A stretch of DNA of 62,416 nucleotides, counting the filler, from Aduncisulcus paluster (Eukaryota), in assembly GCA_024181965.1 (NCBI GenBank). It is 3 parts of 3 records of this genome, joined end to end, with 100 filler letters (N's around TTAATTAATTAA, not from the genome) between each part and the next. Parts side by side here need not be neighbours in the genome. Positions count along the whole stretch, not along the records: positions 1 to 22,818 come from BQXS01010830.1; positions 22,919 to 51,876 come from BQXS01010831.1; positions 51,977 to 62,416 come from BQXS01010835.1. The stretch is one strand, 5' to 3'. Of the stretch, positions 684 through 59,704 are shown in pieces (positions within the stretch are counted from its first letter, which is position 1; each line of letters starts with the position of its first letter). The notes beneath the pieces were generated by a model. It did no database searches and had not been told where the DNA came from. It saw only the letters and a list, made by a program, of their open reading frames with translations. A program made the position numbers and the translations under genes.

Positions 684-3566
684 TTATTTTTTCAGGAATC
701 GATTCAAAAGTCTCTGAAATAATCCTTTTGCCTTTGATTTCTTCTTGGTAATCCCCAAATTGATGGGAATATCCATTCCGACTCCAATTCCGATTGTTGG
801 AGATGGAAACAGTTCAGATATTCCATTTAGTGGCATTTTGCTTGTTGATAATGGCTTAGATGGGGAGAAAAACGATTTAGGAGAGGCTTTTTCAATGTCA
901 AAGAAGGAAGCTGAGAAAGGAACAAAGGCTTTGACTGATATTGATAAATGATTATAGATATCCTCCCCTATTTCTTCCTTTTCCATTTTGTTTCTTCTCA
1001 ATTCTTCAATATTTTGGTCAATTATTTTTCTTTCCTTCCTTCTTTTTTCTTCACATGTTTTCCATGAATGGCTAAACTGAATATACGGTGAAATTCCACA
1101 AGTAGAATTAAATAAATATTGACTGAAACCAAGAACAGATCTCTTACTTTCATTGACGATATCATCAACATTGTTCTGATAGATACAATCAACTCCCAGA
1201 GAGAGAACTCGAGAAGAACTCATCTTATTGGGGGAAGAGGAAGAGGGATCATTTCTATTTTTAGCCTCTACTGTCCTATTTTTAGAATCTAAAGAAGAAT
1301 CATCATTAACACTGATATCTGGAGATTGGTGGAAATGGAAATTCATATGAGAGCCAACACCATAATGAACGCATCTATTTTTATATCGTGAGAAAGTTGA
1401 ATCTCCCTTTACAATCCAATCTACCACCATAGATTGTTTTTTTGTTCTAAATTTATGATGTAAAGCCGAGTTTATGGAGACAAATTCATTTTTGTATTCG
1501 ATTCTTGGATCATCTCTCGATGGAGGTGTTGTTCTTGCTCCGATAATAGTTCGCACTGAATATATACTTGGATTACTTGGATCTAAAAATAGAAAGGATT
1601 CTCGGTTTGTCCTTGTTATCTGAGTTGAGAAAGAGCAAGGAAATTCATATATCATTGGATCAGAGAAGGAAGACGATGGAAGGGACAGAATCCTGGGAGC
1701 TATTTGGCAAGTATTATTGGAATTATACGACTTATTGGAATTATTGTTAATACCCATTTTGTTGAATAAGGGTGAAGCTTTACGTTTTCCAAGACCAATG
1801 TTAAAGGAAAGGATCTGTGACAACCGGAAACTATCGTCTTGAACCGGTGCTTCCGGGAAAGGAAATTCACCAAGCTTTAAGGCTAATTCTAAAGGTTGGA
1901 ATGCAAAGGAGAATCCCAAATCACAGTTAAATCTTGGAATCTTTGCAATATTTTTGGTATTTGTATTTGTAATCATTTCATCTTGATGGATTTTATCGCT
2001 TGCAGTTGCAGTTGATGGAGAATGTAATTCGGATTGTTTGGATGAAGAATTTGTATTAGTACAAAACATAAATGGATATGGATGGAAAGAATAAGCTTTT
2101 GAAAAAGGAACCAAAATATCATTCTTTCCATGTTGAGACTTTGACATTCCTTTCATCCTATCTTTCTTCTTCCTTCCAAGGATACGAACACCATACTTCA
2201 GATGAGAAGAGGATTGAAACCTAAGTCCAAAGGGATATAATTGCTTGAATCGTAATTCTAACCCACGAAGACTATTATTTTGGCCTGGAGATGAACTTGT
2301 GGCGGATTGGAACAACTCGACTAATACTTCCAAGATTTCTTTCGCATCCATTTCTTTATGATGTCTCCTATCTCGAGAAGAGGAAGAAGAGGAAGAAGAG
2401 GAAGAAGTGGTATAAACATGAGTCGAAGGAGAAGAATCAGAGGGAGAAAACATAAAGGATTTGAAGAGACGAGAATGACGACCCCACATGGCAACAACAT
2501 CTCGAACACATCTAAAAATAGAAGATACATGATCTAAATTTAGTTTTTGAGAAGATGATAGTTTAAACATTGTGTTTCGAGTATGAAATGCAACGTTTGT
2601 CCCCATTTCAAGGTTGAGAGTGGATGAATGAAACCGATCAAAATGAGGCGGCTTTACAAGCCTGAAATACGAAGCCACATGATCTTTCATTCCCTTTAGT
2701 TGTTCCATTGTTGTTTTTTTGTCCTTCTTTGACCGTTTGTCCTGATGGAGCAAGGTACTAACGAACCGATCTCGATAATGCAATGGACGTTTTGCAAAAG
2801 AAGGATTAACAATTGGACAGAGAGTTCTTGAGAAATCAGCGAATGTATTGCGACAGTGAATGCATGTCTCAACGGAAACAGGATCGCCAGCATCGAAAGC
2901 ATACAAGAGATATGAGTGTTCTTTGGAGGAAGGACATGACGATATCAGTGTCTCACGAGGAATAAAATACTTCTCAGTGAAGGTATAAAAGGGACCATTC
3001 ATTATTCGGCGAGGTTTTCTGGATTGATGAGATAGATAAGAATGAGTAATAATTTTTTGGTCAAGGAAAACTCGTTGGGAGGGTGATGAAACATAAAATT
3101 GTGGTTTGGGATCTCCATAATAAGGGTGAAATCGATTTACAAAGCCACTCTCTCTTAATTTGGTTGAGAAATGATGTTTTGAACATCTTAAGAAAGTTTG
3201 ATCGCACTCACCACGTGCAGAATAATCGGAAAACATTGGTAAATGTGACATATTATGTAATATAGACTTTGTTTTTGATGGAATTTCTGAAATAATGTCG
3301 TCAATATTATCTTGGAAAGAAGAAGCTATACGTTCATGATTTGGAGCATTCTGTTGGGGAATATCTGATAATTTGGGTAATATTTGTTCGAATGGAAATT
3401 TATGTTCGAATGAAACTCTATATTTGTTGGAAAATTCTTTTTTTCGCTTTTTTGTTTTGGAAATGATTTTGTGAGAGATTAAATCAATAGATGGCTCAGT
3501 TAGCAATGTATCATCAAGTAAATCATTATGATAATCATGGAATGTATTACAAAAATAACTGTCCAT
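684..3566 (-). CDS. 960-aa protein, candidate highly divergent Omp85/Sam50-family outer-membrane beta-barrel
   Basis: Intact ATG..TAA ORF. The C-terminal half has alternating hydrophobic beta-strand segments. FLFLDPSNPSIYSVRTIIG resembles the Omp85 loop-6 FYLGG..SVRGF motif, and the last strands (STCGISPYIQF / LSISVKAFVPF / PTIGIGVGMDI) resemble the Sam50 terminal strands and beta-signal. The ORF is secure; the family is tentative. Confidence 0.45.
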   Translation of the reverse strand: MDSYFCNTFHDYHNDLLDDTLLTEPSIDLISHKIISKTKKRKKEFSNKYRVSFEHKFPFEQILPKLSDIPQQNAPNHERIASSFQDNIDDIISEIPSKTKSILHNMSHLPMFSDYSARGECDQTFLRCSKHHFSTKLRESGFVNRFHPYYGDPKPQFYVSSPSQRVFLDQKIITHSYLSHQSRKPRRIMNGPFYTFTEKYFIPRETLISSCPSSKEHSYLLYAFDAGDPVSVETCIHCRNTFADFSRTLCPIVNPSFAKRPLHYRDRFVSTLLHQDKRSKKDKKTTMEQLKGMKDHVASYFRLVKPPHFDRFHSSTLNLEMGTNVAFHTRNTMFKLSSSQKLNLDHVSSIFRCVRDVVAMWGRHSRLFKSFMFSPSDSSPSTHVYTTSSSSSSSSSSRDRRHHKEMDAKEILEVLVELFQSATSSSPGQNNSLRGLELRFKQLYPFGLRFQSSSHLKYGVRILGRKKKDRMKGMSKSQHGKNDILVPFSKAYSFHPYPFMFCTNTNSSSKQSELHSPSTATASDKIHQDEMITNTNTKNIAKIPRFNCDLGFSFAFQPLELALKLGEFPFPEAPVQDDSFRLSQILSFNIGLGKRKASPLFNKMGINNNSNKSYNSNNTCQIAPRILSLPSSSFSDPMIYEFPCSFSTQITRTNRESFLFLDPSNPSIYSVRTIIGARTTPPSRDDPRIEYKNEFVSINSALHHKFRTKKQSMVVDWIVKGDSTFSRYKNRCVHYGVGSHMNFHFHQSPDISVNDDSSLDSKNRTVEAKNRNDPSSSSPNKMSSSRVLSLGVDCIYQNNVDDIVNESKRSVLGFSQYLFNSTCGISPYIQFSHSWKTCEEKRRKERKIIDQNIEELRRNKMEKEEIGEDIYNHLSISVKAFVPFSASFFDIEKASPKSFFSPSKPLSTSKMPLNGISELFPSPTIGIGVGMDIPINLGITKKKSKAKGLFQRLLNRFLKK

Positions 3567-3919
3567 TCTTAATCATCGAAGAAAAGACGACAACTTGTTT
3601 CTATATGAAAATGATTATTAAATAAAGATATTAAGGAGTAGAATTGGCGTAAAAGTGGCTATAATTAAATAATTTGAATATAAAAAATAAATAAAATATC
3701 TTATCAACGAGTGACAATTTATTGAACTTGAATTGTTTCAAAGGTGGGAGATTACTTTAATAAGTACAAAGTAACCTTTCAACTTCCATGAAACAATATT
3801 ATTAACGATTATGATAAGAATATAATGGAGCAAGAGAATGATACTTTATATTTTCATCGAAAACAATCAATTTCTTTCTCATCTTCTTTATCATCTTGAA
3901 TATCTATATTTATATAAAC

Positions 3920-5635: not shown

Positions 5636-6310
5636 ATGAATGCAAGTTTTGCTTTCAAATTGGGCTTTGACTTTCTTGGTATTTTTTTGAGTGGATCAAT
5701 CTCGTTTACACTCGCCATTCAAACATTTATTTTAAATTTTTCTCTTTTTTTGAGTATGATTTGATGGAATTCTATTTATTCTTCTCTTATGAATTCATGT
5801 AAACAAAAGGTTTTTGACATTTTTGTATTTGGTCCATTATCGACTCTTCTATTGAAAAAAATCCAACAAAGATTTTTCACCCTGAAATTTAATATGATTT
5901 TATTTGGAATACCATTGCTGTTTCCTTATTTTAGAAGTTAAATACTGTTGTGAATACTCTGAGGAGTATAACACTTATGAATGGGCTTTAAGTTTTCCAG
6001 TTGTGTTTGGAGAGATATTTAAGGGGTTTTAAGGATAAATGATGCAATTTATGTAGGAATTGCAGATTCATTGCATAAAGAATAACTTCTGGCAAAGTCA
6101 TCTTTGTATTTTCTGATAATTCGAAGATGAAGTCTTTAACTTTTCTCTTGTTGTATCCTATTTATTTTAAATGTCATTTGAGCTTGTTCTACCATTTTGC
6201 AAGGACAATATATTATGGTCATGTTTATGATTGACAATGGATTTATGGGAAGGAGGTGATTTTTCAGACTCAAATTAAGTTCAATTCAATGGAATTCGCC
6301 AAGCAAATGA

Positions 6311-6620
6311 AATTTTCTATTTCATCCGAAAGAATCATTCTATTTTTAGAAATTCTATTTTTAGAATTGCAATTTTCTATTCGACGCTATGGGTTGATTA
6401 ATTGTTGATTTTACCCTAAATATTCAAAGAAAGGCTGAATTTTTTTCAATTGTGGATGATATTCCTTTTCTTTTAGATTCTGAACATCCATTCCAACTCC
6501 ACTCCGACAATATCATATATCAGCGTAAATGGATGCAAAACTAAAAAATGAATGAGAATATAACCATAAATACAAATTATTTGGTGGTCATTTCTATTTT
6601 TAGAATATCTATTTTTAGAA
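6311..6620. promoter_or_regulatory. Cluster of four TCTATTTTTAGA (MEF2/MADS-type) sites in two tandem pairs
   Basis: CTATTTTTAG cores at 6340, 6355, 6594 and 6609 (15 bp within pairs, 254 bp between pairs), plus partial AATTTTCTATT copies at 6311 and 6371, in a 1.5-kb intergenic region upstream of the uridine kinase gene. The repeats are seen directly; regulatory function is inferred. Confidence 0.5.
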
Positions 6621-7112
6621 ATGATGAATTGTAAATGACGAAGAAAAGGTTACAACACTCAGAATCGGGGTACTTCAATATATAATCACGTTACTGCAAT
6701 CCTGTTTACACTTTTCTTCCCAGCTTGATGCTTCTCTTTGCTTTCTGGTTGTCTTTCAATTTTTTCTTTCCTCAACTCCTTTTTCACTTAATGGTACAAC
6801 TAATTTCGTCTTGAAAAATGCAATTTGAATTCGAATCTTCCCGTCTATTATCAATATTGAATATTGAATAAATATTCAGGCTTTTTCACATAACACATTA
6901 ATAAACTGTCATAATGTGACGATGACCTCGAATATTTGAGCTCAATTCTTCTAAATTAAAAGAGACCACTCGTGCCAGAATCATTTGATCATAATGTATT
7001 TCGTAGATATCCTCCTCTTCCCAGACTTCATATCTTTAGAAGGGACTCCATTCTATTGTTCTTTCTTGAAACACTTGTTTCCAGAACAATATTTATATTA
7101 ATTTATTTTATT

Positions 7113-10100
7113 TTAGAGCATGAAAAAAGGAGATTGGATCAAATCATGGGCAGATGATCGATTTTGAGGATCAATATGAGTGCAATTGGAAATAATATCG
7201 GGAATTTCGGCAGGTACTCCATCATTAAATTGTGAGAATACAGTTTTGAGCAGTATTCCAAAAGCGTACATGTCACTAGCTGGTGTTGGAAAAGGCTTTG
7301 ATTTTTGTTTAATAGCTTCTTCCAATTCTGGTGCCATAAATTGAGGGGTCCCAACACACATTGTCGCCGAAAACACTCTACTCACCTTTTCACTCTCCTC
7401 GACTGCTCCCTCGAAATCACAGAGTAAACCTTGACCATGCTGATCAATGAGAACATTTTCAGGTTTTACATCGCAGTGAACAAGACCATGGTCATGAATG
7501 AAATCAAGTGCATGAAGCACACAAACCAACACTCTACGTATCTTTGTCAGGTTAGATGGGGAAAGATAAGAGTTCTTGCGTCTCTTGATGTGGCCATCTC
7601 CAGATGCAACTCGTGACCTTGAATGGGTTGCCATCTTCTTCGCCCACCGATTGAGATCACCGCGTTCATAGAATGGGAACACGAGAACTACACTCTCCGC
7701 CTCTTTCAAAGATCCTCTCGAATAAAAACCAACAGTTTCATGGACAGCATCACAGGAATTATCAATATCATCATCACCATCATCATCATTTTCCTCACTG
7801 ACAACATCACTCGAAGAATCGGAGGAAGAGGAATATTTAACTCCACCAGCTTCATTGTCTCTATTTTTAGCAGCTTGAGAAGAACCACCCGATGCATGTT
7901 CCTCATCTCGATCGAATCCTGAATCACCCTTTGAACCAGAGTCGAAGAAAGCAAATTTCAATGGAACGATAAACTTGCACTCATTTCCAACACGGGCAGC
8001 TAGAGTTGATCTCACAAGTCTCCTGTACGATGACCTTGAAGAGACAGCTTCCTTATAAACCTTGAGAACGACAGCCTCGCCCATCCACTTCCCTTGGAAT
8101 ATACATCCCCTGTTTAGGGCAGTATCAGACCCAGCCAGGGGATGTAAGTGCGAGAAAGAAGATAGAGAGAGATGTGGCATTAATGGAATCATACTAACGT
8201 GAGGAGAAGACACTCGACTACATTGATGTGATTGTAACATTCCAGCAATCCCACCTTTAATACTCCCAGTTCTATTATCGATTATGCTCATTGGCACGGC
8301 TGTAGAAGAAGAATCATTACCACTGGTAGTTCTGGATTGGGGAGCACTATCACCAGCATTGTCTCCATGTTCATGTCTCGTGTGATGGGAGGATGGTTGA
8401 GCATCTAAATCGACTCCAATGAAAATACGCTCCATCACAGCTGGAGGTACACGCATTCCTCGCCCAAGATGCCTTGCAACAGCAGTCTGAATATGCAATA
8501 TTTCCTTGTGTTTCAATTGGATATCCTTTCTTTTCTCATCCAATTCAGAATGGAGATTTTTAATATTCTGTTGCAAGACACGGATATTGGTAGTGGGAAC
8601 ACAATCCTCAGATTTAGATTTCGGATGAGATGCTTTCCACTTGCTTTCCATGCGTTTCTGCCACTCTATCTTCCTTTTGTTACTCATAATGTCATATTTA
8701 CACACATCTACTCTTGCGATGGCCTCTTGGATGGCTGTTTGGAGATGATCCAACTTTCCAATGCAATTCTCAGCCACTGAGGCATCGTCAATCCAGAGCT
8801 TTATGCGGTCAGAATGAACATAAAGAAGTCTATTGAAACGATTGAATGCTCTGTCTAGGTAAAATGATGATATCTGAACAAGTGAAATGGAATACAGGGT
8901 AAATAAACATAAAGATAGCGTCAGATATGGTAAATGAGATTCTAGCATGGAAATAGATTGAGAATCATCGCCTAAATGATCGAAATGAGAAGTATTAAAT
9001 AACTTGGATATTAACAGTGTTGAAGAACAATCATCAATTTCAGGCCCTGGGATAAGGGTTGGGTTTGATACCAATGGGGATATGCTACTGGGCATTAAAG
9101 AGGAGGATGTGGGCAACATAGACTTTCTTCTCACCATTGTGTTTCGAAGGTTAAAAATAACAGCCATTTTAGAGGATATTAAAGATATAACATCGCTATT
9201 CTTGTTGGTTAATTTCACACCCTCCCTGAATGTGGAATGAGAGAAAAATGACACAATCCAATGAATAAAAGATATGGTTTCATTTTCTTCAGCAATACAC
9301 TTATCAAGCACCTTCAATTGTTCAACAATACCCTGAATATCATCATCAATCGAACTTGAACTCTCCTCAGAATCCTCCTCCTCACTGCCATCAGAACCAA
9401 ATACACTCATATATTGACCATATGCATCCATATTGCCACCAAATGTAGGTGCATTATGTCCATTTGTTGGAACAGATGCAGCATCAGTGCTTGAATAAGC
9501 ACCACGATCTTTTCCACTTAGCATTCCTATAAGGCTTTCTTTAGCATGCCTTGTTTTCCGGCGTTGTTTCTTAAGCATCTCCAGGCTTTGATCAGACATA
9601 TATGATAGAAGAGAAGAACACATGTCAAACAAAACAGTCGCCAGAGACATATGGAATGAGTGAATATCGAATAGCGGTGAGAGATATGATGTATGTGTCA
9701 CAGAATGTGCGTGTTGATGATGATCGGTTGAAGCTGGAACAAACAAAGAAGATGCTGGTTGGTCTCTGTGAGTTTGAGGAGAAGAGTAGAAATTGGGATA
9801 GGAAATAATCTTTGTAAACGGTTTCACAAAGAAAGGAGATAGATCATCATCTTGAAATATTTCTTTTGAATGAATATACCTTGAATAATTATTCCCAGAA
9901 CTTTTATCCTTTCTTTCATATTTCGATGATTTACCAGTAGAATTCTTATTTGAAGAAGAATATTGAGATTTCTGCTCCCGTTTCCCATTCCTCTCTCCTC
10001 TTCCTTCACTCTTTCGTTTCTTTCTCATCATTACTTTCTGCTGCATTTTTGAGGAATAATAACTCTGACGATGCCGCTGCCCAATGTCATCAGGTCGAGG

Positions 10101-13100
10101 TGTTGAATTATTCTCCTCAGCATCAGCATCTGATGAAGGAAGAGAATCAGGGGAAACAGATCTCTCAGCTCTTACAACCGAATCGAAAGGAGAGGAGGAT
10201 GAAGAGGAAGAGGAAGAGGAAGAATCAGCAGAGGAGGAATATTCATCTCCATTATCCACGGTAGAATATATATCCGTAGTACAATCCCCAGTATCAATAT
10301 TGGAACCACCTGATGTTGGAGGGATCACGGAAGAACTAAACTGAACACGAGAGGGAACAATTAGGCGCGAGAATGATTCCGAAGTGATAGGTTTCTTAAC
10401 AGGTGAATCATTTTTCCATAGATTTGAGCAATCATACTCATATTCATACTCATACTCAGATATTAGCTCAAATGATGGCTCTTCCTCCTCTTCTTCTTCT
10501 TTCCCTTCCTCTTCCTCAATGACAGCACTCACGAGTTGTTTAGGAGCTTCAGACAGTGACAGTATCTGCTGAGCATTCTTGTTCCCTTTGGGTGCCTCAA
10601 TTCCCTTGTCATCCTTTGAGGCACCCAAAGAACCAGGCACCGTCAATGAAAGAGGAATAGACCCCGAGGATATAGTGTTCCTTGCAGACGGGGTGAGAAT
10701 ATAATCTACAGAAGTGTGTGACACAGTGGAAGAAATAGATGTTGATGAGAAACTATCGATGCTGTATCGATGTTTGTGATTCGACTCAAGGTCAATTCCT
10801 TGTTCGTTGGATGAGAACTTCTCAGAAGACATATAGGGGATGAATAAATGTTCATTACTCCCCTTATCTGTCTTTGGATGATAAGGTTGCCTTGAATACG
10901 AATCATCAGATTCTCTCGAAGGAGAATCAAGTTCATCATCCACTCCTCGGCAATGGATATCCGAATCAACGGAATTGGCATGGTCTTGGGTTGAGGATTC
11001 AAGTGGACATTGAGGAACTCTTGGTCGAGGAATAGACGGAGCCACACTGATGTCACGGGCAGTGGAATCGTAGCCTTCACTTCTGGCTGGAGCATCTTGG
11101 AGAGAAGAGGAGGTGGACGAAACCATGGGAGTTGTCAGAGTCGTGAATGGCTGCTGTTTGTGCTGCTGTTTGTGCTGCTGTTGGTGAGGAAGAATAAGAG
11201 AGGGTGTTAGCGGGTGTTTATCTAAAAATAGACCTTGAGAAGATATAAATTCCGATACAGGAAGGAATATTTCTCCATCTCTGGCTGTATCATCCTTCTG
11301 GTTATGCTCTTTTTCATCTATTTCTCTCTCCTTTTCGGATGGCAATGACAAAGGTTGAACAAATACGGCAATATCTTTTGTTTGCTGTTCTGGTTGTTCT
11401 TGTTTCTCATCTTTTCTGTCTTGTTCTATTAATAGTCCAGATATATCAGCATCTGATGGATCCTCTTGGCAATACTCAGTGTCGTCAGCAGCATGGTCAC
11501 TAATTGTAGAAGAAAGATGTCTATTTTTAGATTCATACTGAGAAACAATGGACAAAGACACTGCTCTATCAGATGAATGCTGAGTGGTTGCTTGTTCTTG
11601 AACTTTTCCTTTTCCCTTAAGCTTTTCAGTAGTTTCGTCATTCTTTTTACGAGCTACTTGCACACGTTTTCCTTTCCTTATTTTAGTTCGGTACAACTTT
11701 TGACTCATCTGTTGGCTATATTTAGCACACCGATGTATCTCATTTTGCATATCCTTAACCAGTGTCATATTTTGAGTTGGATCCAAAAGTCTGAACAACA
11801 TTCTTTTAATAATTTCAACAATCAATATATCATCATTTCTATTTCTATTTATAGATATAATATTCTCATTCCCTTTTTCCATTGATGCTTTACATGTACT
11901 ATATGAATGTTTCTTGGTCGAATCTATGTCTTGTTCGAGGTGATTCTGTGAATCTGAAGGAAGTTGAACAGAAGCAACAAATGAAATAAACTGATCAATT
12001 AACAATCGTATCCCAGTGTTTCCACTCTGACCAGTGTTTCCACTCTGACCATTCTGCTTGAGACATGCTGAGGAATGCTGCTCATCACATTTGTGGAACA
12101 CGTGAAGATGCAATTTGGATGGATGTTTAACAGCTGATTCTTTGAATGTATTCGTCTTACCTTCATCGATACTGGAGTAAATAGGATGTTCATGCGTGCA
12201 TTGAGAATGAGAAGAGCCAATCCCTTCTATTTCAATCTCCGCCTCTCTTTCTTTCTTTTCCTTTTCTTCTTCCTCTTTCTCTTTCTCTTCTTCTATCTCT
12301 TTTCCTTTCTTTCCTGGCGTCTCTGTCTTGGAAATCTTCAATTTTTCTTTATGAGTTTTTTTCTTTCCAACAATAATTTGATCTTCATTTTCAGTCTCTG
12401 ACTTTTTCGAATCTATTTTTAGAACCTTCTCAGAACCATTCTTCTTCTTCTTCTTCTTTTCATCAGTTGATGTGCTTTGAGGGGTTGAAGAAGTAGATGT
12501 CGAAGAAGAAGATGTCGAAGAGTGACTAGAATAATATATCATCTCTTTAAATTCCGGCATTCTTTCCCGTTTCCTGGCATGATCCTTCCAAATATGGAGT
12601 ATTGCATCATAAAGAGCAAAAATACCTTTTCCACCTTCACTCAAATCAGTGATATTATGATATCTAACTTGAGAATCTTCAAAAAGACTACCCATCCTCT
12701 CTTTCTCAGTTTTAATTCGTTCTAAATTTAGATCAACAGTTTTAGAATGTTGTAGATTTTCAGAACAAGCAGAAATGGACATGTATTGTTTGTAAAACAA
12801 GTGTGGCGATGATAAACATAACAAACTCCTCGAAAATAGCATAAAATCCCCAGAAAGACAAGAGGATGAAGAAGAAAAAGAAAAAGACGAAGATGAAGAA
12901 GAGGGAGAGGAAGAGGAAGATGAAGGGGAAGCATGAGGGTGTAATTTAAATAATTTACATTTAACATTAAGTTGAGTGTTTTTCAATTTGGAATATTCAC
13001 TCAGTTTAAAAGAATAATCCCTAAATAAACAGAATAAAGGAGAAGATGAGAGGAAAGAGGAAAGGGACGTGGAGATTCGTGGAAATGGAATTGATATTCC

Positions 13101-44258: not shown

Positions 44259-46406
44259 ATGGTCATTAGCTTGCTATATGACCGCTTATTTTTTCCGTTA
44301 TTCTGCATAATTACTTTTTTTGTATTCAATATATATGAAAATAATGTTTTATCATTCAAAATGATTTTATATTTCCTTCTACTCCTATTATTACGATTTA
44401 AGCTTGGAATTCAGAAATTGAGCCCACCTAATCCAGATATATCTTCTTCTAAACACATTTGCAACATCGAATTCCCATCATCTCGGGACTCTCATAAGAC
44501 CTCGACTATTCAAGATGATAATCCATTTCTATCATCTTGTTTATCCTTATTATTACCTCATTTTTTGACAAATAAGTCTTTACATCAACTTGTAATCAGA
44601 AGTGAATCCTTTATAAATGATTTTATTGGTAAGAATGCTAAGAAAGTACCTCTCGATCCGATTCACTTTCTTTCAGCTAATGTGAAGGATTTTAAAATAG
44701 ATTTCCATGATGTATCTTTCTCAGATTGTGAAAATGGGGATTATAAAGCATTTTTTAAAACATCAATATGTGGAGACATTTCTCTTGTTATTCAGTCTAA
44801 ATTCTTCATAAATAAGCCATGGGATCGGTTTTTATCTCTTCCATTTGTGGTGTCGTTCTCATTAAAATCGATTTCTTTTGATTGTTCACTTCAGGTGGGA
44901 CATTCATGCGAGAAACGGACACTCTCCGGTTATTCAAAATCATCAAAGGTAAAAGATCCATCTTTATGGGTGGCTTTGTCAAATATTCGAACAGATTTCT
45001 CCCTATCCGTTGCGCTTGTCGGGAAAGAATCCACAAAGCCGATGATCCATGATGCTGGTATCGTCGAAAAGATTCTCAAACAGTTATTTTTAGATATATG
45101 TGCAACCATCGATGGTAAAAACCTTGTGTGTATTCCTCTTTCCTTCTTTGATGATACAGATGTGCAGTCTCAAGGCTTTTCTGGAACAAAATCACATCCC
45201 GTCGACAAACCACCAAAAACTTCAACGACTCCCGACGACCAGTTTCATGCCATCTTGAAATTATTATGGGAAGATTTTGTGCGTGAACGGTGGTCTTCAC
45301 AACCAGAAATAATTTATCCCTCAATTGTTGATACAACTGTTTATTCCAATCCTGCAGAAACTTCTGGTCTATGCTCATCCCCAAAACATACAATAGAATC
45401 AAAGAGAGTAGTTTCTCACCATGGTACCCAAAATAGATCTCCTGTGGCTTGGGAGTGGGATGATGATGAGTCATTGAATGAGCGAGAAAGAGAAAGAATC
45501 CAAGGTATTGACCATAGTGATGTCCATGAATTTAAATCCGTGTCTGGATATGTTACACCATCGTACATCACTATTAAGACAAAGAATCCTCTCGATGCTG
45601 ACATACTCGAAAAGAAGTTATCTGAGATGCCCCGAAAGCATCACTATCAGCACTCTCCTCAATATAATACAGGGAATACCAGTGTGAATAAGACCAGTTC
45701 TTCTCCGTCCTCTTCTTCCTCCTACGTGTCTCCAACATCTTCCGGCATTGTTGATGAGTCTATGTCTACTTTTAGGACTGGAATGGCATCTCCACCGTCA
45801 TTGTCTGATTCCGTCGTGCATCCAGTGAAGAAAGCATCCCCAAAATCCACTAGTTTCTCACCTACATCTAAAAATAGAAGAGATGCCATCGTTACTTCAT
45901 CTGATTTGATGGGTAAACAACGATCCACAAAATCTGCAACAAAAGTCCAAGAGTCTGCAGACCAACCAAAAGTTTCTTCAAAAATTTTAGCCCACAAGAT
46001 GGTTTCCACTGATTCAGGCGATAAAAACAAGATCGACTCGCCCTCTTCTTCCACTTCCCTCGATTCTGATTGTTTTGTGTCACCGCCCGTTGTGGTTCCA
46101 ACTGAGAAAGGAAGGAGGAAGAATGAGGCATCTGGGATATTTGGTAGACTTAAGTTCAAAGGAAAACGAGGGACAATTGGGACGAAAGGAGATAGGAAAG
46201 CCAAGATCAAAACTGTTGATGATTCTTCCTCCTCTTCTTCGTCTCTTTTCCATACACAGTCACAGTTTTTATCAACACATCATTCAGGGTTTGACCATGA
46301 ATTGCATATTTCTCATGAACCCGAATTGGAACGAAGGTTCAATGTAAAGAAAGATACAAGTCTCTCGGGAATGTTTATTCAAGACTTTGGGTATGGAGAT
46401 GTGTAA
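44259..46406 (+). CDS. Mmm1-like SMP/TULIP lipid-transfer protein with N-terminal TM anchor and long disordered Ser-rich tail
   Basis: INDFIGKNAKKVPLDPIHF, GDISLVIQSKFFINKPWDRFLSLPFVVSFSL and FSLSVALVG...IHDAGIVEKILKQ...VCIPL align by eye with the yeast Mmm1 SMP domain (LNDFIGRKS..LDTIKI; LTLGVETKLLLNYP...LPINLVV; IKSLIGSRSKLENIPKI). Possible in-frame 81-nt intron 44322-44402 (GTATTC..AAG). Confidence 0.7.
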   Translation: MVISLLYDRLFFPLFCIITFFVFNIYENNVLSFKMILYFLLLLLLRFKLGIQKLSPPNPDISSSKHICNIEFPSSRDSHKTSTIQDDNPFLSSCLSLLLPHFLTNKSLHQLVIRSESFINDFIGKNAKKVPLDPIHFLSANVKDFKIDFHDVSFSDCENGDYKAFFKTSICGDISLVIQSKFFINKPWDRFLSLPFVVSFSLKSISFDCSLQVGHSCEKRTLSGYSKSSKVKDPSLWVALSNIRTDFSLSVALVGKESTKPMIHDAGIVEKILKQLFLDICATIDGKNLVCIPLSFFDDTDVQSQGFSGTKSHPVDKPPKTSTTPDDQFHAILKLLWEDFVRERWSSQPEIIYPSIVDTTVYSNPAETSGLCSSPKHTIESKRVVSHHGTQNRSPVAWEWDDDESLNERERERIQGIDHSDVHEFKSVSGYVTPSYITIKTKNPLDADILEKKLSEMPRKHHYQHSPQYNTGNTSVNKTSSSPSSSSSYVSPTSSGIVDESMSTFRTGMASPPSLSDSVVHPVKKASPKSTSFSPTSKNRRDAIVTSSDLMGKQRSTKSATKVQESADQPKVSSKILAHKMVSTDSGDKNKIDSPSSSTSLDSDCFVSPPVVVPTEKGRRKNEASGIFGRLKFKGKRGTIGTKGDRKAKIKTVDDSSSSSSSLFHTQSQFLSTHHSGFDHELHISHEPELERRFNVKKDTSLSGMFIQDFGYGDV

Positions 46407-48584: not shown

Positions 48585-51239
48585 ATGAAACCTCAAAGAA
48601 ATTTATCAGTTAATATAAAAAATAACAAAAAGTCTATCTTTTCTTCCCCGGTAGATTTTTCCAAACCTACAAGGCGCGCCATTATTGAACAGCAAAAAAA
48701 AGAGAGGCAAGTCTCAATTGATCGAGGAAAAGATTTATTAGAAAGAATTTTGAAAGCAGAAGGTACGACAGCAGAACAATTATATCAAATAGCCAGTGAA
48801 ACACAAGAACCTGAAAAACAAGATAAAAAAAGGGTCAATCCAGTTTCATATATTATTCCTCCGGAAGAAAATCAAGATCTATCCACTTCACAATTCATTA
48901 AGAGGGCTGAATGCTGTCGAGATGTGTTTGATTCCGTATATCCTGGATCAGCAACTGAAAGGAGAGATGAAGTTCTTGATAGAATAGCAAAAACAAGTGA
49001 TATTCAAGTATTAGAAGATATTGATAAGGATTTATTTTCCTCTCCGAAGAAAGACAAACCACCTCCCAAACAACAAATAACAATATCTGAAGAACCTTCA
49101 AAGACCAAACCACCTCCTAAGGCCGTTCCAAAGGCTAAATCAAAATCGGTGCCCCCTCTTCTCTCTTTGGCGATTATTCCTTCAACTGTCATGTATTATC
49201 GACCATCATCCTCCCTCTCTGAGTCTTCAGGTGGACCCTCAATGGATGAAATATCTGTGAAGCTTCGTATTCGAGTTCGATCATGTTCCCCGATTGAGAT
49301 TGAAGGAAAAGGTTTAGAATCTGACAAGAATGTTGTCAGGGTCCATTTCCCCCGAACCCACATTGTATTCAACCTTCCTCCTGCGATATCCTGGGCCCTT
49401 GTCCAACCTGAATTGTCTGAGGAAGAGCTTGACAAGTACCCCAGTGCATGCATTGAAGTGTGGGAGAAGAAAGCTCCGGGTGCAACTACTGTCCCAACTA
49501 AGTCTGAATCGCAGACCATGATCACTGCCGGTACTGTAGATGTTTCTCCGTTCATCTTTTGTGGTGTTGCTGTTGCTCCTCTTCCGAGCCACCATTCAAG
49601 GTATTGGTCGTCGTGCATTATGAGCGGGAACTGTGCCGTGATGGATAGACCCTTATGTTTGACCCATCCAGATTATCTTGCCTCCCCAATGATGCAAGAA
49701 CGTTCCCTTCTGTCGTTTATTGCTGTTAAAGTGATTGTCGGTGGAACGAGAGCCGTGCGAAAGTATGTAGCCGATATTGATGAAATGAAACGGCGTGAAA
49801 CACTAGCCGAGATGAGAGAAAAAGATCAGTCTGCTCCATTAGATCAGCAAATGCGTAGAATCACCATCAGTCGCATTGAAAGGAGAAGAAGAGAGGTTGA
49901 TCTTGAAGAAGAGAGGGAGAGAGAAATGGAGCGAGTTCGTCGTGAGAAAGACAGAAAGAGACTTCTTGAGGAACGCGAAGAAAGAGAGAGAAGAGCAAAG
50001 GAAGAGGAATCCTTGCGCTTGCACCAAACAATCTTTGTATCTAGACTTTCTAATAAGGACGTTGGGCATGATAAACCTCCACTCGATCCCCGGCGTGGTG
50101 TGTTTTCTTCCTCGTGTCATATGCGTGCCTCTCAGGAGCCCGATGATCTGGATATTGATGAGGGAAAAGATGGGCATGACGACATAAGTCAATGTTCAGC
50201 CAGAGATCTTCATCGAAAGGAGATACCCAGTACTCAGAGACATCCAAAAGTCCTTCGTTCTCAGCGTAATATGTCTTCTATTCTCTCCTCTTTCTCCCTT
50301 TCAATATCTATTGTGGAATGCATCCGTACTGAGGCCATCATGGATGAAAAGATACGGGTCAAAGCCAGACTTTCCGAGTTGTCTGAAAGTTCGCTTGATA
50401 TTGGTTGTATTGGAGATTGTGTTGGGGATTCCTTGACGGTTGACGCTGAAGGATCATGCGAGGTTGGACTTAATCATATATTTGCTCTCCCTTTCCTTCC
50501 CTCACTCCTCAGTCGTTCATCTGAACCTATGCGAAAATCCATGTCTTCTTCTCTGTCCGATCGTGAATCAATCCGTTTTCTACTTTCTCACATTGGTCTC
50601 GAACTAAATTTAGAAAAACAAGATGCCTCATATGTTCGGAAACAAGGCATAGAATCCTGGAGAGAAGATGATTATATGGCATATTCCAACATTGGTCAAT
50701 GTGTTATTCCATTATTTTCATTGACCGTTCTGCCTGAACTTAATGGTTGGTACAATTGGGACAAAGGTGGACAAGTGAATGTAAAGCTTCATATTACCCC
50801 TTCTCTTGGAATATCTAATTGTGGCATGGGATCAGTCTTTTCACCGCCGACTCTCTCTTCAACTTTACTGTCAACGTTGGGATCATCGTACAACTGCAAT
50901 CCATCATCTGCTGAGAATATAAATGCCACAGCTCCATCTTTGGTAGTATCTAAGCATTTAGAATCGGCACAAATGTCAGCTCCAGCTTCAAGGGAAATTG
51001 ATATTTGTGCCGATGAACCCATTGAAGAGAAAGAGAGAGAGGAGCAAGAAGAAGAAGCGAAAATTGAAGCGAAGGCTAGAATATTAACACAGCGTCTTAA
51101 AGATCTTCACAAATTCTCTATCGAACGTGTTTTTCAACAACATGTTCCTGAACTCGAACAAATCAAACGAAAAGCTGGCTTGTTACATGATCCTGAAGAA
51201 TATAACGAAGATTCAAAATCCTCAGATTCATTTTTTTAG
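48585..51239 (+). CDS. 884-aa C2-domain/coiled-coil protein, C2CD3-like (centriole/basal body) candidate
   Basis: Two C2-like blocks (ACIEVWEK...FCGVAVAPL; IGQCVIPLFSL...LNGWYNW...GQVNVKLHITP, resembling the last C2CD3 C2 domain) separated by an ER-rich coil. Confidence 0.55.
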   Translation: MKPQRNLSVNIKNNKKSIFSSPVDFSKPTRRAIIEQQKKERQVSIDRGKDLLERILKAEGTTAEQLYQIASETQEPEKQDKKRVNPVSYIIPPEENQDLSTSQFIKRAECCRDVFDSVYPGSATERRDEVLDRIAKTSDIQVLEDIDKDLFSSPKKDKPPPKQQITISEEPSKTKPPPKAVPKAKSKSVPPLLSLAIIPSTVMYYRPSSSLSESSGGPSMDEISVKLRIRVRSCSPIEIEGKGLESDKNVVRVHFPRTHIVFNLPPAISWALVQPELSEEELDKYPSACIEVWEKKAPGATTVPTKSESQTMITAGTVDVSPFIFCGVAVAPLPSHHSRYWSSCIMSGNCAVMDRPLCLTHPDYLASPMMQERSLLSFIAVKVIVGGTRAVRKYVADIDEMKRRETLAEMREKDQSAPLDQQMRRITISRIERRRREVDLEEEREREMERVRREKDRKRLLEEREERERRAKEEESLRLHQTIFVSRLSNKDVGHDKPPLDPRRGVFSSSCHMRASQEPDDLDIDEGKDGHDDISQCSARDLHRKEIPSTQRHPKVLRSQRNMSSILSSFSLSISIVECIRTEAIMDEKIRVKARLSELSESSLDIGCIGDCVGDSLTVDAEGSCEVGLNHIFALPFLPSLLSRSSEPMRKSMSSSLSDRESIRFLLSHIGLELNLEKQDASYVRKQGIESWREDDYMAYSNIGQCVIPLFSLTVLPELNGWYNWDKGGQVNVKLHITPSLGISNCGMGSVFSPPTLSSTLLSTLGSSYNCNPSSAENINATAPSLVVSKHLESAQMSAPASREIDICADEPIEEKEREEQEEEAKIEAKARILTQRLKDLHKFSIERVFQQHVPELEQIKRKAGLLHDPEEYNEDSKSSDSFF

Positions 51240-51258
51240 AAGACCAATGATATTTTGA

Positions 51259-51846: not shown

Positions 51847-51876
51847 AGTATATTTGGGTCTCAGAGGATCAGATAT

Positions 51877-51976: not shown

Positions 51977-52007
51977 ACATCATCATTTGTCAACAAAACA
52001 GTCAACA

Positions 52008-53552: not shown

Positions 53553-54365
53553 AAATTGTTCATGAATGGATCTTTCTCCATCGTTATTGTTTGAATATTA
53601 CGAATCGCAAATTCTTTTTTACAATTTTAAACTAGATATAAATTTTTGTTTTTCTTGAAACAAATGATTCTTATTTTTCATTTCAATTCTTTCGGCTTGA
53701 ATGAACATTATTCGATCTAACCTGGATGAAAATTTCGATATTTTCCAAGTTATCTAACGTCGTTCAGTGACTAATAGTTTCAAGTTTATGTTCATCTTCC
53801 ACTCAAATATAATAATAAATTTTACTTGTCAAATTATCTTCTTTATATCCTAAATAGAAATTTCAAATTAAAAGTAGAGAGAACCGATTATTGGTATGAT
53901 GGAGCGAATTGCAGAAAAGTTGTCAATTTGCCGGCGAAATAGAAAATCTATTTTGTTTGTATCGCATTTACATGAAATAATAATTATATAAGATTTGAAA
54001 TCAAAACTATTTCAGATATAATATCATAAATGTCTTCCCAACCTTTTTTATTCGTTCTAAATATATGGCAATCAAAAAAATGTTGATCAGTGCCACTGGC
54101 GGCCAGTATAGTGATCACATCCACAAAAGAGGAATGAGATCTTTATCATATCTCGTGACACAATTCCGAGCTTAATCCGAAGTTTTATTCACAATAATGG
54201 ATCTAAATTTAGATAAAGAGTTGTCTCGAACATAATGAAACTTTTTTTTTTTTTTTTTTAAGCACTTTCCAATCACAGAACTCAAGAAATCTTGATTCAA
54301 GATTGATAATAATTAAGATGATGATAATAAAAACATTTTAAGGTCAAATTCAACTTACGATATTT

Positions 54366-55658: not shown

Positions 55659-56229
55659 AACAAAATATACTTATAAATTTTAAATGAGGTTACGTGTTGT
55701 GGACAAACGCACTGCCAAAAAAAATTGGATCAAAAACAACGAATATCACAATAACATGAAATATTTCCTGGGTACTTTTGTTCATTTATTTCAGATTAAA
55801 GATTTTTCGATTTGTTTGACGATTTCTATCTGTGTTGGAATCACTCAAAATCCAGCCGAAAATAGTTTTGGAATATTTTTCCCATTTCCTTTTTTTCTTG
55901 CCATAAAATGGAGAGTGTATTTATATACTCTTCATTATCATAGTCCTTGATGACAATGTCGCCCCAATGGCTAGTTCTTCGATGACCATTCGACTATAAC
56001 TGACGGGCTTTGAATATCTTATAATTTAAGGTTACTTCTTCTTTATTTAGAGAGTGTATAATGCTTATATTCGCTAAGGGATTATCATTTACAATATTTT
56101 TATTCATTCATTTTATCTATTTTGTTTATTTCGTATGATAAAATTGTGATCAAGGGCATTCAAGGCTCGCTATCAAGATCTATATTATTCAAAAATAAGT
56201 GATTGGGGACATTCAACTGAGATAGAAAT

Positions 56230-56807
56230 TTACTTTTTCTTGGTTTTCTTGCGTTTTTTTGAGCTTTTCTTGCTTGAATGCTTCTTTTTTTCAGGCTTTC
56301 CCACATTTCCCATTCCCTTATCAGGTCTTCGTCTTTCCTTTTCTTTCATTTTAAAATCTTTGACATTAACGACATGACTTTTTAAATCAATGTCTTCAAC
56401 TAAAATACTTACTTTTTTACCTCTGTGATCAATCTTCTTCCCTTGATCTTCAATAACACTTTCTTTCTTAGCCGGTGTTTCCTGTCCAACTGGTACAATT
56501 CCTACTCCTAAATAGGATGCTAGATGTGCGGGAATATGAACACGTTGCTTCGCCAATTTCTTCTCCTTTAATTTCTCTTGACGTATTTCTAATTTGTTTT
56601 TCTTTTCAAGATTTTCCTGAAGCTCTTTGGCTTTTTGTCTTCTCAAATCTTTTCTTTTCTTAAATCCTGTGATAAACTCACTTGAAGTTGAAATAGTCGT
56701 ATAATACGAAATAAAGAAAATACAACATTAAATATCCACAATAAATATAAAACATACAGCCTTGAGCTCTCATCATAGATGATATTTCCCTTTTTATCTT
56801 TTCCCAT
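56230..56807 (-). CDS. RRP17: Rrp17/NOL12 (Nop25) nucleolar protein, 2 exons (56807-56758, 56680-56230), 166 aa
   Basis: The spliced N-terminus IIYDESSRLEFITGFKKRKDLRRQKA matches the family motif FD...R.EYLTGFHKRK..RR. 77-nt GTATGT..AAG intron 56757-56681; lysine-rich tail. Confidence 0.88.
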
Positions 56808-57022
56808 TGCAAAATCGTTGATTTCAGATAATTGATACGTAAATCCTTATGATATCTTATAATATATCATTAAGCAGAGGTTATTTCATCAAAAATATTA
56901 TTTAAAATTATTTTAATTGTTATACACTCTTATTCTCGATGATTTCCCATGTTTTCAGAACCTATTAGTTTTTCTTCTGAATCTTTGAATTATAAAAATT
57001 TAATTTTCAATATTATATCTAT

Positions 57023-59704
57023 ATGGAAGAAGATATTCGTGGAACAACGGGTATTTGTCATATAAAGTCTCAATTTCGTGTTCAATTTGAAGATCCTTTA
57101 TCTGTTAAGTCAGATGAAAAAACCTTTACTCAGAATCTCCCCATAAAAAAACAAGCTATTGGGGATGATGCTGCGATACCAATTGAATCAATTCATTTTG
57201 AAAGAGAACATGCAGCTCCAACAGTGTTTGGTGGTCCTATACCTTCATTTTTATTGCCCAAAGATAGACAAAAAGGGATTAGGCGAGGAAAAGAAAGAGG
57301 AAATGCCCTTGCAAAGCTCCCTCCAGCCTTGTGTTTTGCAACCATGCGAGGAGAGAAATGTACAAAAACTAATTGTCGGTGTGATCACGATCGTGAGAAA
57401 TATATTCGCGAAAAGGGTGAATTACTCCATGACACAACCATAGATCCCCTTTGTCCAGATTCAGCTCCTCTATCTTCTCTTCTTATTCCCGAATCTACCC
57501 CTTTGCCATGTCCCTTTTACAGCAAACTCAATGCCTGTCCATATGATTGTATGTGCATGTGTAATCACTCAAATACTCAAGATAAGATTCATAATGGACA
57601 AGAAAAGGATGAAACAAAGGAAGAAGAAGTGACTATAAGAGTTCCATCATCAGAACTCATAACTGATACTGATACTAAAGGGGATATTATAGCTGATTCC
57701 GAGAGCAGTCCAGCTAGTCTTAAACTTCTCGGGCAACCGGCCCAGGCTCTTTCCTTGCTTGGTTACTCAAATACGACTCCATCAGATATTGGTCATATAC
57801 GATCAACTTGCGATGCCGTTCGCAAGATACAGAAGTCTGATATCGAATCGTCTAGTTTGGATGACGATAAGGGGCTTATTAGATATTTCTATACTCCTTC
57901 TCAGTGGAAACCAGAAGAACTCACTCCAGATGCTCTGAGAGGTATTATTTCTACTCCTGTCGACAAAAAGGAGACAAAAGAAGAAGAAAAGGAAGATGAG
58001 AAAGAAGATGAGAAAGAAGATGAGAAAGGAGAGAAGGACTTAAGACCTCATGATGTGTCTGTGACCTCACCGACCTCTGATCCATCTTCCATCCCTACAC
58101 CGCTTATTGGACATCTCCCTACTCGAGTGAGTCAGCATCACTCGGCTATCCCAGTATGGCCTATTGATAGTAATACTGATTGTGATGAGGATTCCAATTG
58201 TTCAATTATCTCGATGGCTGATAAGTTATCTCTAGCTCCAATGGCTACAGTGGGTAATGTTCCTTTCAGAGTCTTATGTACACGGCTTGGATGTGACGTT
58301 ACTTGCACTGAAATGGTTCTTACAGATTCGATAGCAGAGGGGAAAAGAGGGGAGTTCAATCTTTTAAGAAGACACCCCGAGGAAAAAGAATGGGGAGTAC
58401 AACTTTGTGGTGGTCATCCTAGTTCTATTTATAGAACAACACGTCTATTATTAGAACACACATTGAGTGACAGTCCCCCCGACTTCATTTCTCTCAATGC
58501 TTGTTGTCCCATCGATACAATAGCTGGTGGTGGAGCATCCAGAGGAAGAGGACGGCGAGGAAAAGGAAGGAAGAAGTCAGGTGGTGGATGTAGTGGTGGT
58601 GCTATGCTCTCTTGTGATTATAACAATGATCCTAAGCGTATTATTCGATGCTGTGAAAGCCTCTGTGATGCTATATATGACCATCAATATGACTATCCAT
58701 TAAGGTGCTCTTCTTCCTCTTCATCTTCTTCTTCTCGGAAACCCATACATGTTAATGTAAAGATTAGGACAGGACCAAAGGCTATTCAAAGACATGCACA
58801 TGATATCATGATTCCAGCACTGATTCGGTGTGGGGTGAACAGTGTGAGTATTCATGGAAGAACATGGCAACAGAGGTACAGTAAGCTCTCAGACTGGGAA
58901 TATATGGCCGATTGTGCTAAAAATAGCTACATTGTTCAAGGTAACATGATATCCTCCTCATCTCCATCTTCATCTTTAGGAATTGTACCACCATTCCGTC
59001 GCTTTGAAACTGTTGTCAATGGAGACATTCTTTCCATCTGGGATGTCCGAGAAGGTCTCCAAAGGATCAAGCAGAGGGTGTGGGGAGGAAAACAAGGAAC
59101 GGGTCGGGGTGGTGACTTCATGTCATGGAGTGATGGAGTTCCACTCACTCAGTCAGAGATTGACTGGTTGAAGAAAGAGCGTCTTGAGTGTGCGTCTCTC
59201 TCCAACCCGATGATGCTTGATTCATTGCTTCACCCTCATTCATCTTCTGATGATTCTCATCCTCTTCCCTCTTCTCTGGGTGTCATGATTGGCAGAGGAG
59301 CCCTTGTAAAACCTTGGATATTCTCTGAGCTGAAACGGAATAGAGGAAAGGAGGTTCCTTATCTTTGGGATATAAGCGCCACGGAAAGGTTCAAGATGAT
59401 AAATGATTTCTGTAAACTCGGCTTAGAATGCTGGGGGAGTGATAGGAAAGGGGTGGAAACAACTCGACGGTTCTTGCTTGAATGGTGGTCGTTTGGATGC
59501 CGGTATGTGCCGGTTGGTGTCGTTGAAAGTCTTCCACAACGCCTTAATCAACGTCCTGATTCCTACATTGGTCGAAATGAACTTGAAACACTTCTGGGGA
59601 GTTATAAGGTGTCCGATTGGATAAAAATATCTGAACGAACAATACTAGGCAGGGCCCATGAAGGGTTTAATTTTGTTCCAAAACATAAATCAGCGTCGTG
59701 GTAA
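57023..59704 (+). CDS. DUS3: tRNA-dihydrouridine(47) synthase Dus3
   Basis: Two CCCH-like zinc fingers, LAPMATVGNVPFR, VQLCG, NACCPID (catalytic Cys), IHGRTWQQRYSKLSDWEY, NGDILS, VMIGRGALVKPWIFSE and C-terminal FVPKHKSASW. Confidence 0.95.
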   Translation: MEEDIRGTTGICHIKSQFRVQFEDPLSVKSDEKTFTQNLPIKKQAIGDDAAIPIESIHFEREHAAPTVFGGPIPSFLLPKDRQKGIRRGKERGNALAKLPPALCFATMRGEKCTKTNCRCDHDREKYIREKGELLHDTTIDPLCPDSAPLSSLLIPESTPLPCPFYSKLNACPYDCMCMCNHSNTQDKIHNGQEKDETKEEEVTIRVPSSELITDTDTKGDIIADSESSPASLKLLGQPAQALSLLGYSNTTPSDIGHIRSTCDAVRKIQKSDIESSSLDDDKGLIRYFYTPSQWKPEELTPDALRGIISTPVDKKETKEEEKEDEKEDEKEDEKGEKDLRPHDVSVTSPTSDPSSIPTPLIGHLPTRVSQHHSAIPVWPIDSNTDCDEDSNCSIISMADKLSLAPMATVGNVPFRVLCTRLGCDVTCTEMVLTDSIAEGKRGEFNLLRRHPEEKEWGVQLCGGHPSSIYRTTRLLLEHTLSDSPPDFISLNACCPIDTIAGGGASRGRGRRGKGRKKSGGGCSGGAMLSCDYNNDPKRIIRCCESLCDAIYDHQYDYPLRCSSSSSSSSSRKPIHVNVKIRTGPKAIQRHAHDIMIPALIRCGVNSVSIHGRTWQQRYSKLSDWEYMADCAKNSYIVQGNMISSSSPSSSLGIVPPFRRFETVVNGDILSIWDVREGLQRIKQRVWGGKQGTGRGGDFMSWSDGVPLTQSEIDWLKKERLECASLSNPMMLDSLLHPHSSSDDSHPLPSSLGVMIGRGALVKPWIFSELKRNRGKEVPYLWDISATERFKMINDFCKLGLECWGSDRKGVETTRRFLLEWWSFGCRYVPVGVVESLPQRLNQRPDSYIGRNELETLLGSYKVSDWIKISERTILGRAHEGFNFVPKHKSASW

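Follow-up and report, generated by a model that had tools for sequence, protein, structure and literature searches.

The DNA analyzed in this study, referred to here as the window, is a stretch of 62,416 nucleotides from the eukaryote Aduncisulcus paluster. It consists of three contigs placed end to end (positions 1-22818, 22919-51876 and 51977-62416), and all counts and all evidence given below refer to these three contigs only. The published draft genome of this organism has a GC content of 39.1% and an N50 of 4.6 kb (PMC9933649). The window is intron-poor eukaryotic DNA with genes for Rab, a protein kinase, a WD40/Notchless protein, a BLTP1-like protein, a Dus protein, a uridine-kinase-like protein and the ribosomal protein L34e. 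Within some of these genes and in the non-coding DNA beside them, the interrupted palindrome TCTA-W4-TAGA (W, A or T) occurs far more often than expected. This motif is putatively an array of binding sites for a dimer of a MEF2-type MADS-box protein, a reading derived from the DNA sequence for which we consider the chances to be about even.

The core of the motif, CTA-W4-TAG, was found at 23 sites, and 14 of them are exact copies of the 10-mer CTAAAAATAG (reverse strand CTATTTTTAG). In 10 of these 14 copies the identity extends to the full 12-mer TCTAAAAATAGA; apart from low-complexity sequences, no other 12-mer is as frequent in the window. The initial annotation of this DNA had listed 13 exact copies, ten of them as the full 12-mer, and seven variants; each of these was located where it had been reported, and a fourteenth exact copy (58917) as well as two more variants (11426 and 11716) were added. 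The complete set of sites is as follows, with the residues of the open reading frame (ORF) at the site where these are known:

1255..1264, minus strand: exact copy of CTAAAAATAG, as the 12-mer GCTAAAAATAGA; in ORF 684-3566(-), residues AKNR; forms a pair with 1276 (21 bp)
1276..1285, minus strand: exact copy of CTAAAAATAG, as TCTAAAAATAGG; in ORF 684-3566(-), residues SKNR
1583..1592, plus strand: exact copy, full 12-mer; antisense to ORF 684-3566(-), residues LFLD
2512..2521, plus strand: exact copy, full 12-mer; antisense to ORF 684-3566(-), residues SIFR; forms a pair with 2534 (22 bp)
2534..2543, no strand assigned: variant CTAAATTTAG with palindromic AATT center; in ORF 684-3566(-); TGAGAA lies 4 nt beyond
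6340..6349, minus strand: exact copy, full 12-mer; non-coding; unit 2 of tandem pair A (15 bp spacing)
6355..6364, minus strand: exact copy, full 12-mer; non-coding; unit 1 of pair A; 6365 is the last position of long DNA contigs of run X1
6594..6603, minus strand: exact copy, full 12-mer; non-coding; unit 2 of tandem pair B (spacing 15 bp); contigs of both DNA and RNA start at 6592
6609..6618, minus strand: exact copy, full 12-mer; non-coding; unit 1 of pair B
7861..7870, minus strand: exact copy, as GCTAAAAATAGA; in the kinase ORF 7113-14216(-), residues AKNR; located N-terminal of the matched kinase lobe, in a stretch without alignment
11222..11231, plus strand: exact copy, full 12-mer; antisense in the kinase ORF, residues LFLD; first site of a cluster of five (11222-11854)
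11426..11435, no strand assigned: variant CTATTAATAG; in the kinase ORF
11521..11530, minus strand: exact copy, full 12-mer; sense in the kinase ORF, residues SKNR
11716..11725, minus strand: variant CTAAATATAG; in the kinase ORF
11845..11854, minus strand: variant CTATAAATAG (TCTATAAATAGA); in the kinase ORF
12413..12422, minus strand: exact copy, full 12-mer; in the kinase ORF, residues LKID
12722..12731, no strand assigned: variant TCTAAATTTAGA; in the kinase ORF
45868..45877, plus strand: exact copy, full 12-mer; in ORF 44220-46406(+) on the second contig, residues SKNR
50604..50613, no strand assigned: variant CTAAATTTAG; in ORF 48585-51239(+)
54203..54212, no strand assigned: variant TCTAAATTTAGA; non-coding; flanked by the 3' ends of two convergent ORFs
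58425..58434, minus strand: variant TCTATTTATAGA; in the Dus3-like gene, codons S468-R471, gap-free alignment columns; forms a pair with 58445 (20 bp)
58445..58454, minus strand: variant TCTATTATTAGA; in the Dus3-like gene, codons L475-E478, gap-free alignment columns
58917..58926, plus strand: exact copy, as GCTAAAAATAGC; in the Dus3-like gene, codons A632-S635, gap-free alignment columns

The 14 exact copies compare with a mean of 0.20 (maximum 2) in 100 dinucleotide shuffles of the window, and for the 23 CTA-W4-TAG sites the shuffle-type expectation was 1.12 (maximum 5). Markov models with orders from 0 to 6, for which the window itself served as training sequence, predicted between 0.09 and 1.65 copies of the 10-mer (order 5, 0.44). 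Thirteen ORFs contain 10 of the 14 exact copies and 18 of all 23 sites; when synonymous codons were shuffled within these ORFs, means of only 0.72 (maximum 4) and 1.83 were obtained, and none of 500 shuffles reached 10 or 18, respectively. Furthermore, the 64 possible words X3-W4-rc(X3), in which the second arm is the reverse complement of the first, were compared. CTA..TAG ranked first (23 observed, 0.81 expected), and the runner-up was ATA..TAT (14 observed, 6.6 expected). With arms of four bases, TCTA..TAGA was observed 15 times versus 0.14 expected, and the next best word 4 times versus 0.95. Chance or a composition artifact as the cause of these numbers is ruled out by the Markov models, the codon shuffle and the comparison with similar interrupted palindromes. 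Within this one window, the excess proposed in the initial annotation thus persists against a fifth-order Markov and a codon-aware background, and the motif outranks all comparable AT-centered palindromes. These results confirm an excess of a MEF2-type word in this DNA, genes included.

The motif is sharply delimited in its length as well as in its bases. A spacer of exactly four bases between the arms gives the 23 sites, and spacers of 0-3 and 5-9 bases give 0 to 3; with C..G as outer bases 23 sites are found, with any other pair at most 14. All centers consist of A and T (AAAA 14, AATT 4, TAAA 2, TTAA 1, AATA 1, ATAA 1), and the AAAA and AATT centers, together 18 of 23, contain no TpA step. 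Only 5 of the 23 sites, those with AATT or TTAA, are perfect palindromes. In the 14 exact copies, the C is preceded by T (11) or G (3), and the G is followed by A (12), G (1) or C (1). Neighbors with one mismatch in an arm occur at chance level (6 observed, 4.3 expected), and those in which one A or T of the center is exchanged for the other are enriched (4 observed, 0.43 expected). The sites therefore represent a sharp family, and the neighbors do not look like those of a decaying repeat family. Judged by sequence, this specificity profile resembles the read-out of DNA by a protein.

As the arms UCUA and UAGA are complementary to each other and enclose four nucleotides, they might alternatively act as a hairpin with a four-nucleotide loop in RNA or single-stranded DNA, and the A-rich strand is indeed the sense strand in 7 of the 10 exact copies within ORFs. 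Folding of a single unit, however, yields only -1.1 kcal/mol (z = -1.15), both orientations are found inside single genes, and the arms neither co-vary nor extend; they are one fixed sequence that does not continue into longer or variable palindromes. We regard a function as hairpin as hardly credible.

Beside the motif itself, the hexamer TTCTCA was noticed in mirror-symmetric arrangement 2-18 nt outside of eight sites (2534, 7861, 11222, 11426, 11521, 12722, 45868 and 50604), versus 0.98 expected (0 of 5000). This pattern was spotted first and the statistic computed afterwards; it is only suggestive and may reflect a partner site or a chance finding. Two observations concern the composition of the arms: CTAG is the most under-represented tetranucleotide of the window given its trinucleotides (44 observed, 67.3 expected, ratio 0.65), and among the 736 leucine codons CTA is rare (56), with 8 of the 56 located within motif sites.

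The first contig carries 12 of the 14 exact copies (P = 2.4e-4), and its sites form sub-clusters at 1255-1592, 2512-2543, 6340-6618 and 11222-11854. Five close pairs with distances of 15, 15, 20, 21 and 22 bp were found, versus a null mean of 0.18 pairs within 22 bp (0 of 20000). The first four of these pairs had already been described in the initial annotation and are real; the 22-bp pair is added here. The clustering in the first 12.5 kb, which was claimed there as well, holds insofar as 12 of the 14 exact copies do lie together, but the region is in reality one contig of 22.8 kb, and the positional argument is partly an artifact because three contigs were joined into one window. The linkers between the contigs (N44-TTAATTAATTAA-N44 at 22819-22918 and 51877-51976) are such that distances from one contig to another have no physical meaning. 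Within the ORFs, the copies leave the reading frame intact; all four stop-free frames and both strands are used, and both orientations occur inside single genes. This use of frames and strands had been recognized before, and together with the codon shuffle and the gap-free alignment columns described next it bears out the view that the motif belongs to the DNA level and not to the protein level.

How the sites came into being can be followed in the Dus3-like gene (57023-59704(+), third contig), the only conserved gene that bears the motif. Its three sites were examined in alignments with two solved Dus structures, one Dus3 homologue and 149 and 130 representative homologues over the two halves of the protein. 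All three sites lie in columns without gaps, and the only local insertion (residues 481-484) is located downstream of the second site. Because these columns contain no gaps, the three sites arose, as read from the alignments, by base substitution and not by insertion, which argues against models in which the word is pasted into the DNA. The comparison of insertion and substitution refers to these three sites; the other 20 lie in orphan or non-coding DNA. A search for homologues of ORF 684-3566 matched only this ORF itself, a search with kinase residues 450-1050 gave zero matches, and the alignment of the kinase domain does not extend to the site at 7861.

This result bears on the possibility that the sites are by-products of a mobile element or of repair, that is, either excision footprints of 6 bp (the TA duplication plus four terminal bases) left by a locally hopping Tc1/IS630-like element that inserts at CTAG, or small templated insertions. 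Such 6-bp excision footprints are known for Minos, a member of the Tc1/mariner family, and IS630 uses CTAG as its target. A by-product of this kind would explain why the center is fixed at four bases and mostly AAAA/TTTT or the hybrid AATT, why copies in ORFs keep the frame, and why the copies are strongly clustered and rarely decayed. The low observed-to-expected ratio of CTAG would also fit, as would the location of most copies in orphan, weakly constrained coding DNA (ORF 684-3566 and kinase residues 450-1050). Contrary to this, none of the three Dus3-like sites is an insertion, the five close pairs would require pre-existing pairs of the rare CTAG, and the arms do not vary as templated palindromes would. 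In addition, the window contains no element with inverted ends bounded by CTA..TAG that could have served as donor, no transposase domain was found in its 17 large and 103 small ORFs, and the DNA contigs, compared with the window over 1-20000, showed zero insertions or deletions. An origin of the motif as by-product, in the footprint and the repair version taken together, is consequently quite unlikely in our judgment.

The resemblance of the motif to binding sites of MEF2 proteins is close. According to PMC7470950, the consensus of the MEF2 family is YTAW4TAR, CTAAAAATAG is the 10-mer of highest affinity for MEF2B in SELEX (the systematic evolution of ligands through exponential enrichment), and MEF2 favors the longest A-tract in the center, with A-tracts without a TpA step being preferred. 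MEF2D is listed with TCTAAAAATAGA in one table row of PMC5449588. The identification of the motif with the MEF2-type MADS-box consensus, which had been made from the sequence at first inspection, is therefore well founded, because the word equals the top SELEX 10-mer of MEF2B and the 12-mer of MEF2D. All 23 sites fit YTAW4TAR, which follows from the construction of the search, and 14 of them are the 10-mer of highest affinity. Centers of A and T only, with a preference for A-tracts, are found here as they are in MEF2 sites. Further shared features are the arms with two-fold symmetry, the 4-bp A/T center and the flanking bases T/G and A/C.

MEF2-type factors are also reported among the fornicate relatives of A. 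paluster: Supplementary Table 1 of PMC10484287 lists one MEF2-type MADS gene in Spironucleus salmonicida and, as +2 detected by a hidden Markov model search, such genes in Kipferlia bialata. By analogy, a MEF2-type factor in Aduncisulcus is plausible. Vertebrates use sites of this type with MEF2A-D, and in yeast, the MADS-box factor Rlm1 uses CTA(T/A)4TAG.

From these features we infer that TCTA-W4-TAGA would be recognized by a sequence-specific, symmetric and thus dimeric DNA-binding protein, for which a MEF2-type MADS-box factor is the likeliest candidate. Such a dimer would recognize both arms, CTA and TAG, as well as the narrow minor groove of the A-tract. Sites in coding as well as in non-coding DNA would have been created by point substitution and kept, and they would be arranged as single sites, as close pairs of 15 to 22 bp and as clusters with 2 to 5 members. 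Occupancy would be raised by this pairing and clustering, and the dimer bound to such arrays might mark the locus or regulate it at the level of DNA, so that the effect of binding could be transcriptional regulation or architectural marking. As the placement in gene bodies does not fit ordinary promoter control, intragenic regulatory modules or an architectural role appear to be the forms that such an effect would take.

Several observations weigh against the assignment to a MEF2-type factor. The same survey (PMC10484287) found 0 MADS genes in Giardia, Trichomonas and Tritrichomonas, and Aduncisulcus lies outside of that survey. The SRF-TF domain (PF00319) had no match in the 17 large and 103 small ORFs of the window. 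TTA or TAA arms are not in excess, so that the sites are stricter than MEF2 sites. The sites are distributed very unevenly over the three contigs (17, 2 and 4), and the BLTP1-like gene of about 20 kb contains zero sites. In the Dus3-like gene, motif codons encode rare residues in 4 of 13 cases and codons elsewhere in 58 of 182; this is no excess, and no independent indication of selection can thus be drawn from the protein alignment. The sites are not placed as is expected of binding sites in a compact protist genome: 18 of 23 lie inside ORFs, the four sites between the kinase ORF and the PRK-like ORF are about 700 to 980 bp away from the nearest start codon, and 0 of the 17 putative gene starts examined have the motif within 120 nt upstream. 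The location in regulatory DNA of target genes, which characterizes MEF2 sites, was not found here.

The result for the 17 gene starts excludes a general promoter element. It also bears on the possibility that the motif is a TATA-like core promoter or an initiator that would give rise to cryptic, possibly bidirectional transcription inside genes. In Giardia, AT-rich initiators drive such transcription, and the very highly covered L34e gene of the window is preceded by a one-mismatch version of the motif (TATAAAAATAGA), 76 to 87 nt upstream of its start codon. No fixed position relative to the 17 starts was found, however, and the strict C..G together with the two-fold symmetry does not fit recognition of the TBP type. 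The contigs of the sequencing runs show neither starts and ends of transcripts nor their strand. We consider this explanation very unlikely. Likewise, the motif is not the 3' end of spliceosomal introns (branch point plus AG): the joints 19578>19697 and 14203>14342 in RNA-like contigs bound GTATGT...TAG introns of 119 and 138 nt, which lack the motif, and among the joints seen on 1-20000 no joint was found at a motif site.

The placement leads to another alternative, namely that the motif is recognized by a different symmetric DNA-binding protein or has a non-regulatory role at the DNA level, such as an origin mark, a chromatin boundary or the organization of nucleosomes, and that the match to MEF2 is convergent. 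This explanation shares all statistical evidence and all evidence on specificity with the assignment to MEF2, and the location in gene bodies instead of at gene starts is more in keeping with an architectural mark than with a promoter element. The 15-bp tandem pairs recur, and the same word in 15-bp tandem units was found as presumptive origin iterons of a phage (6 of 9 loci), which illustrates that such arrays can serve replication proteins. The exact match over 12 bases to the MEF2 optimum, flanks included, would in this case have to be a coincidence; moreover, no candidate protein is at hand and no observation bears on replication or chromatin. Taken together, convergence on the MEF2 word is a possibility that deserves attention, although we regard it as doubtful. 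A more specific version would be a word that organizes the genome, for example as an origin, a boundary or a site for loading of chromatin proteins, and not a promoter element, which was written by substitution and is bound by a dimer of the MEF2 type or another type in this free-living relative of Giardia. This appears unlikely to us; if true, it would be a eukaryotic counterpart of HIP1 or of uptake sequences.

The phage iterons were encountered in a search of metagenomes with the tandem pair, which gave nine loci, none of them informative on the Aduncisulcus genome. Six of the nine (L001, L003, L004, L005, L007 and L009) represent one phage locus, another (L002) is a 15-bp array of 10 units, and two (L006 and L008) look like other eukaryotes. 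In the phage locus L004, the 12-mer is present as 15-bp tandem units inside an ORF (2684-3415) that resembles replication initiators and remains unbroken. By their sequence, these units look like origin iterons within the initiator gene. The arrays thus agree with the tandem pairs of the window in the 12-mer, in the 15-bp units and in the location inside an ORF; they differ in that they belong to a bacterial virus, with one array per genome, which lies within the virus' own replication-initiator-like gene. We take the sequence identity to be coincidental.

For the region of the tandem pairs, the contigs of two runs of one sample, X1 (DNA) and X2 (RNA-like), were mapped to positions 1-20000. 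Run X2 is regarded as RNA-like because it contains two joints of the GT..AG type that do not occur in the DNA run. At the inner edges of the two tandem pairs, the long single-copy DNA contigs break off (6365) and resume (6592). Among the rows listed, the DNA depth, given per contig, was 48294 in the bin 6004-6670 versus about 1270-1300 alongside. Loose ends with unrelated flanks were found at 6337/6338, 6367/6368, 6624 and 6633 in both runs. These observations suggest further copies of the tandem pair at other loci, part of them transcribed. The tandem-pair 29-mers are 93% identical. Furthermore, joints of 6366/6367 to 6590, which skip 222-223 bp between the tandem pairs, occurred in both runs; they may represent an allele that lacks the spacer and has four consecutive units, or they may arise from cross-alignment between the two 29-mers.

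In comparison with MEF2 sites, the motif of A. paluster shows clear differences in addition to the agreement described above. The sites here lie mostly in ORFs and not in promoters, and they form 15-bp tandem pairs. Furthermore, C..G is obligatory, whereas MEF2 accepts Y..R. HIP1 of cyanobacteria and the uptake sequences DUS and USS are hyper-abundant genomic words of bacteria. The motif shares with them that a short word occurs far above expectation on both strands and is written into coding DNA by the choice of codons. In contrast to these words, it is found in a eukaryote, in most copies as an imperfect palindrome and in patchy density (17, 2 and 4 sites). The analogy to HIP1 has little force, as true palindromes are a minority of the copies (14 of 23 have an AAAA center). 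With the footprints of Tc1/mariner elements such as Minos and with IS630, the motif has in common the structure TA plus four bases plus TA inside C..G, the preservation of the frame and the local clustering. It differs from them since the Dus3-like sites are not insertions and neither donor element nor transposase is present in the window; in addition, the close pairs would not be explained.

The literature on Aduncisulcus and on MADS-box genes of metamonads was searched together with the motif strings; among the matches listed, and as far as their excerpts go, the word is not described in any metamonad. While the type of site is known, the strong enrichment, the embedding in ORFs by substitution and the 15-bp tandem pairs are new features in a metamonad. 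Almost nothing is known about the control of transcription in metamonads beyond Giardia and Trichomonas, and the motif offers a testable pairing of a factor with a DNA word. If the intragenic sites prove to be functional, selection for a DNA word would override the choice of codons in a eukaryote, and a factor of the MADS type would be used beyond the control of promoters. If the sites are by-products of mobile elements instead, they would record a recent local burst of transposition.

Beside the motif, some features of the window and its genes were observed. Six more runs of 20 N are present and look like scaffold gaps. The contig end 1-667 is probably multi-copy sequence, as its DNA is covered at about 3.5 times the single-copy depth and base differences occur at 335 (A>G) and 395 (A>T). 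At 16185-16526, 340 bases around a 20-N gap are passed over by DNA contigs as well as RNA-like contigs, and 255 bases at this joint fit either side; this stretch is probably a duplication made by the draft assembly. The BLTP1-like gene is probably one giant gene (23665-44036(-)) with three very long ORFs (2951, 2525 and 1297 amino acids), and the gaps between them are short stretches holding 20-N runs.

At its 5' end, the giant kinase gene contains an intron of 138 nt (14204-14341(-), GTATGT...TACTAAC...TAG), and its true start codon lies in a first exon of 10 nt upstream of the long ORF. The gene for ribosomal protein L34e (19433-19955, start codon at 19520), whose coverage is very high, carries TATAAAAATAGAATT upstream of its start codon, at a distance of 76 to 87 nt. 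Its intron (19578-19696, 119 nt, GT..AG) is backed by 15 RNA-like contigs, which also include minor alternative acceptors.

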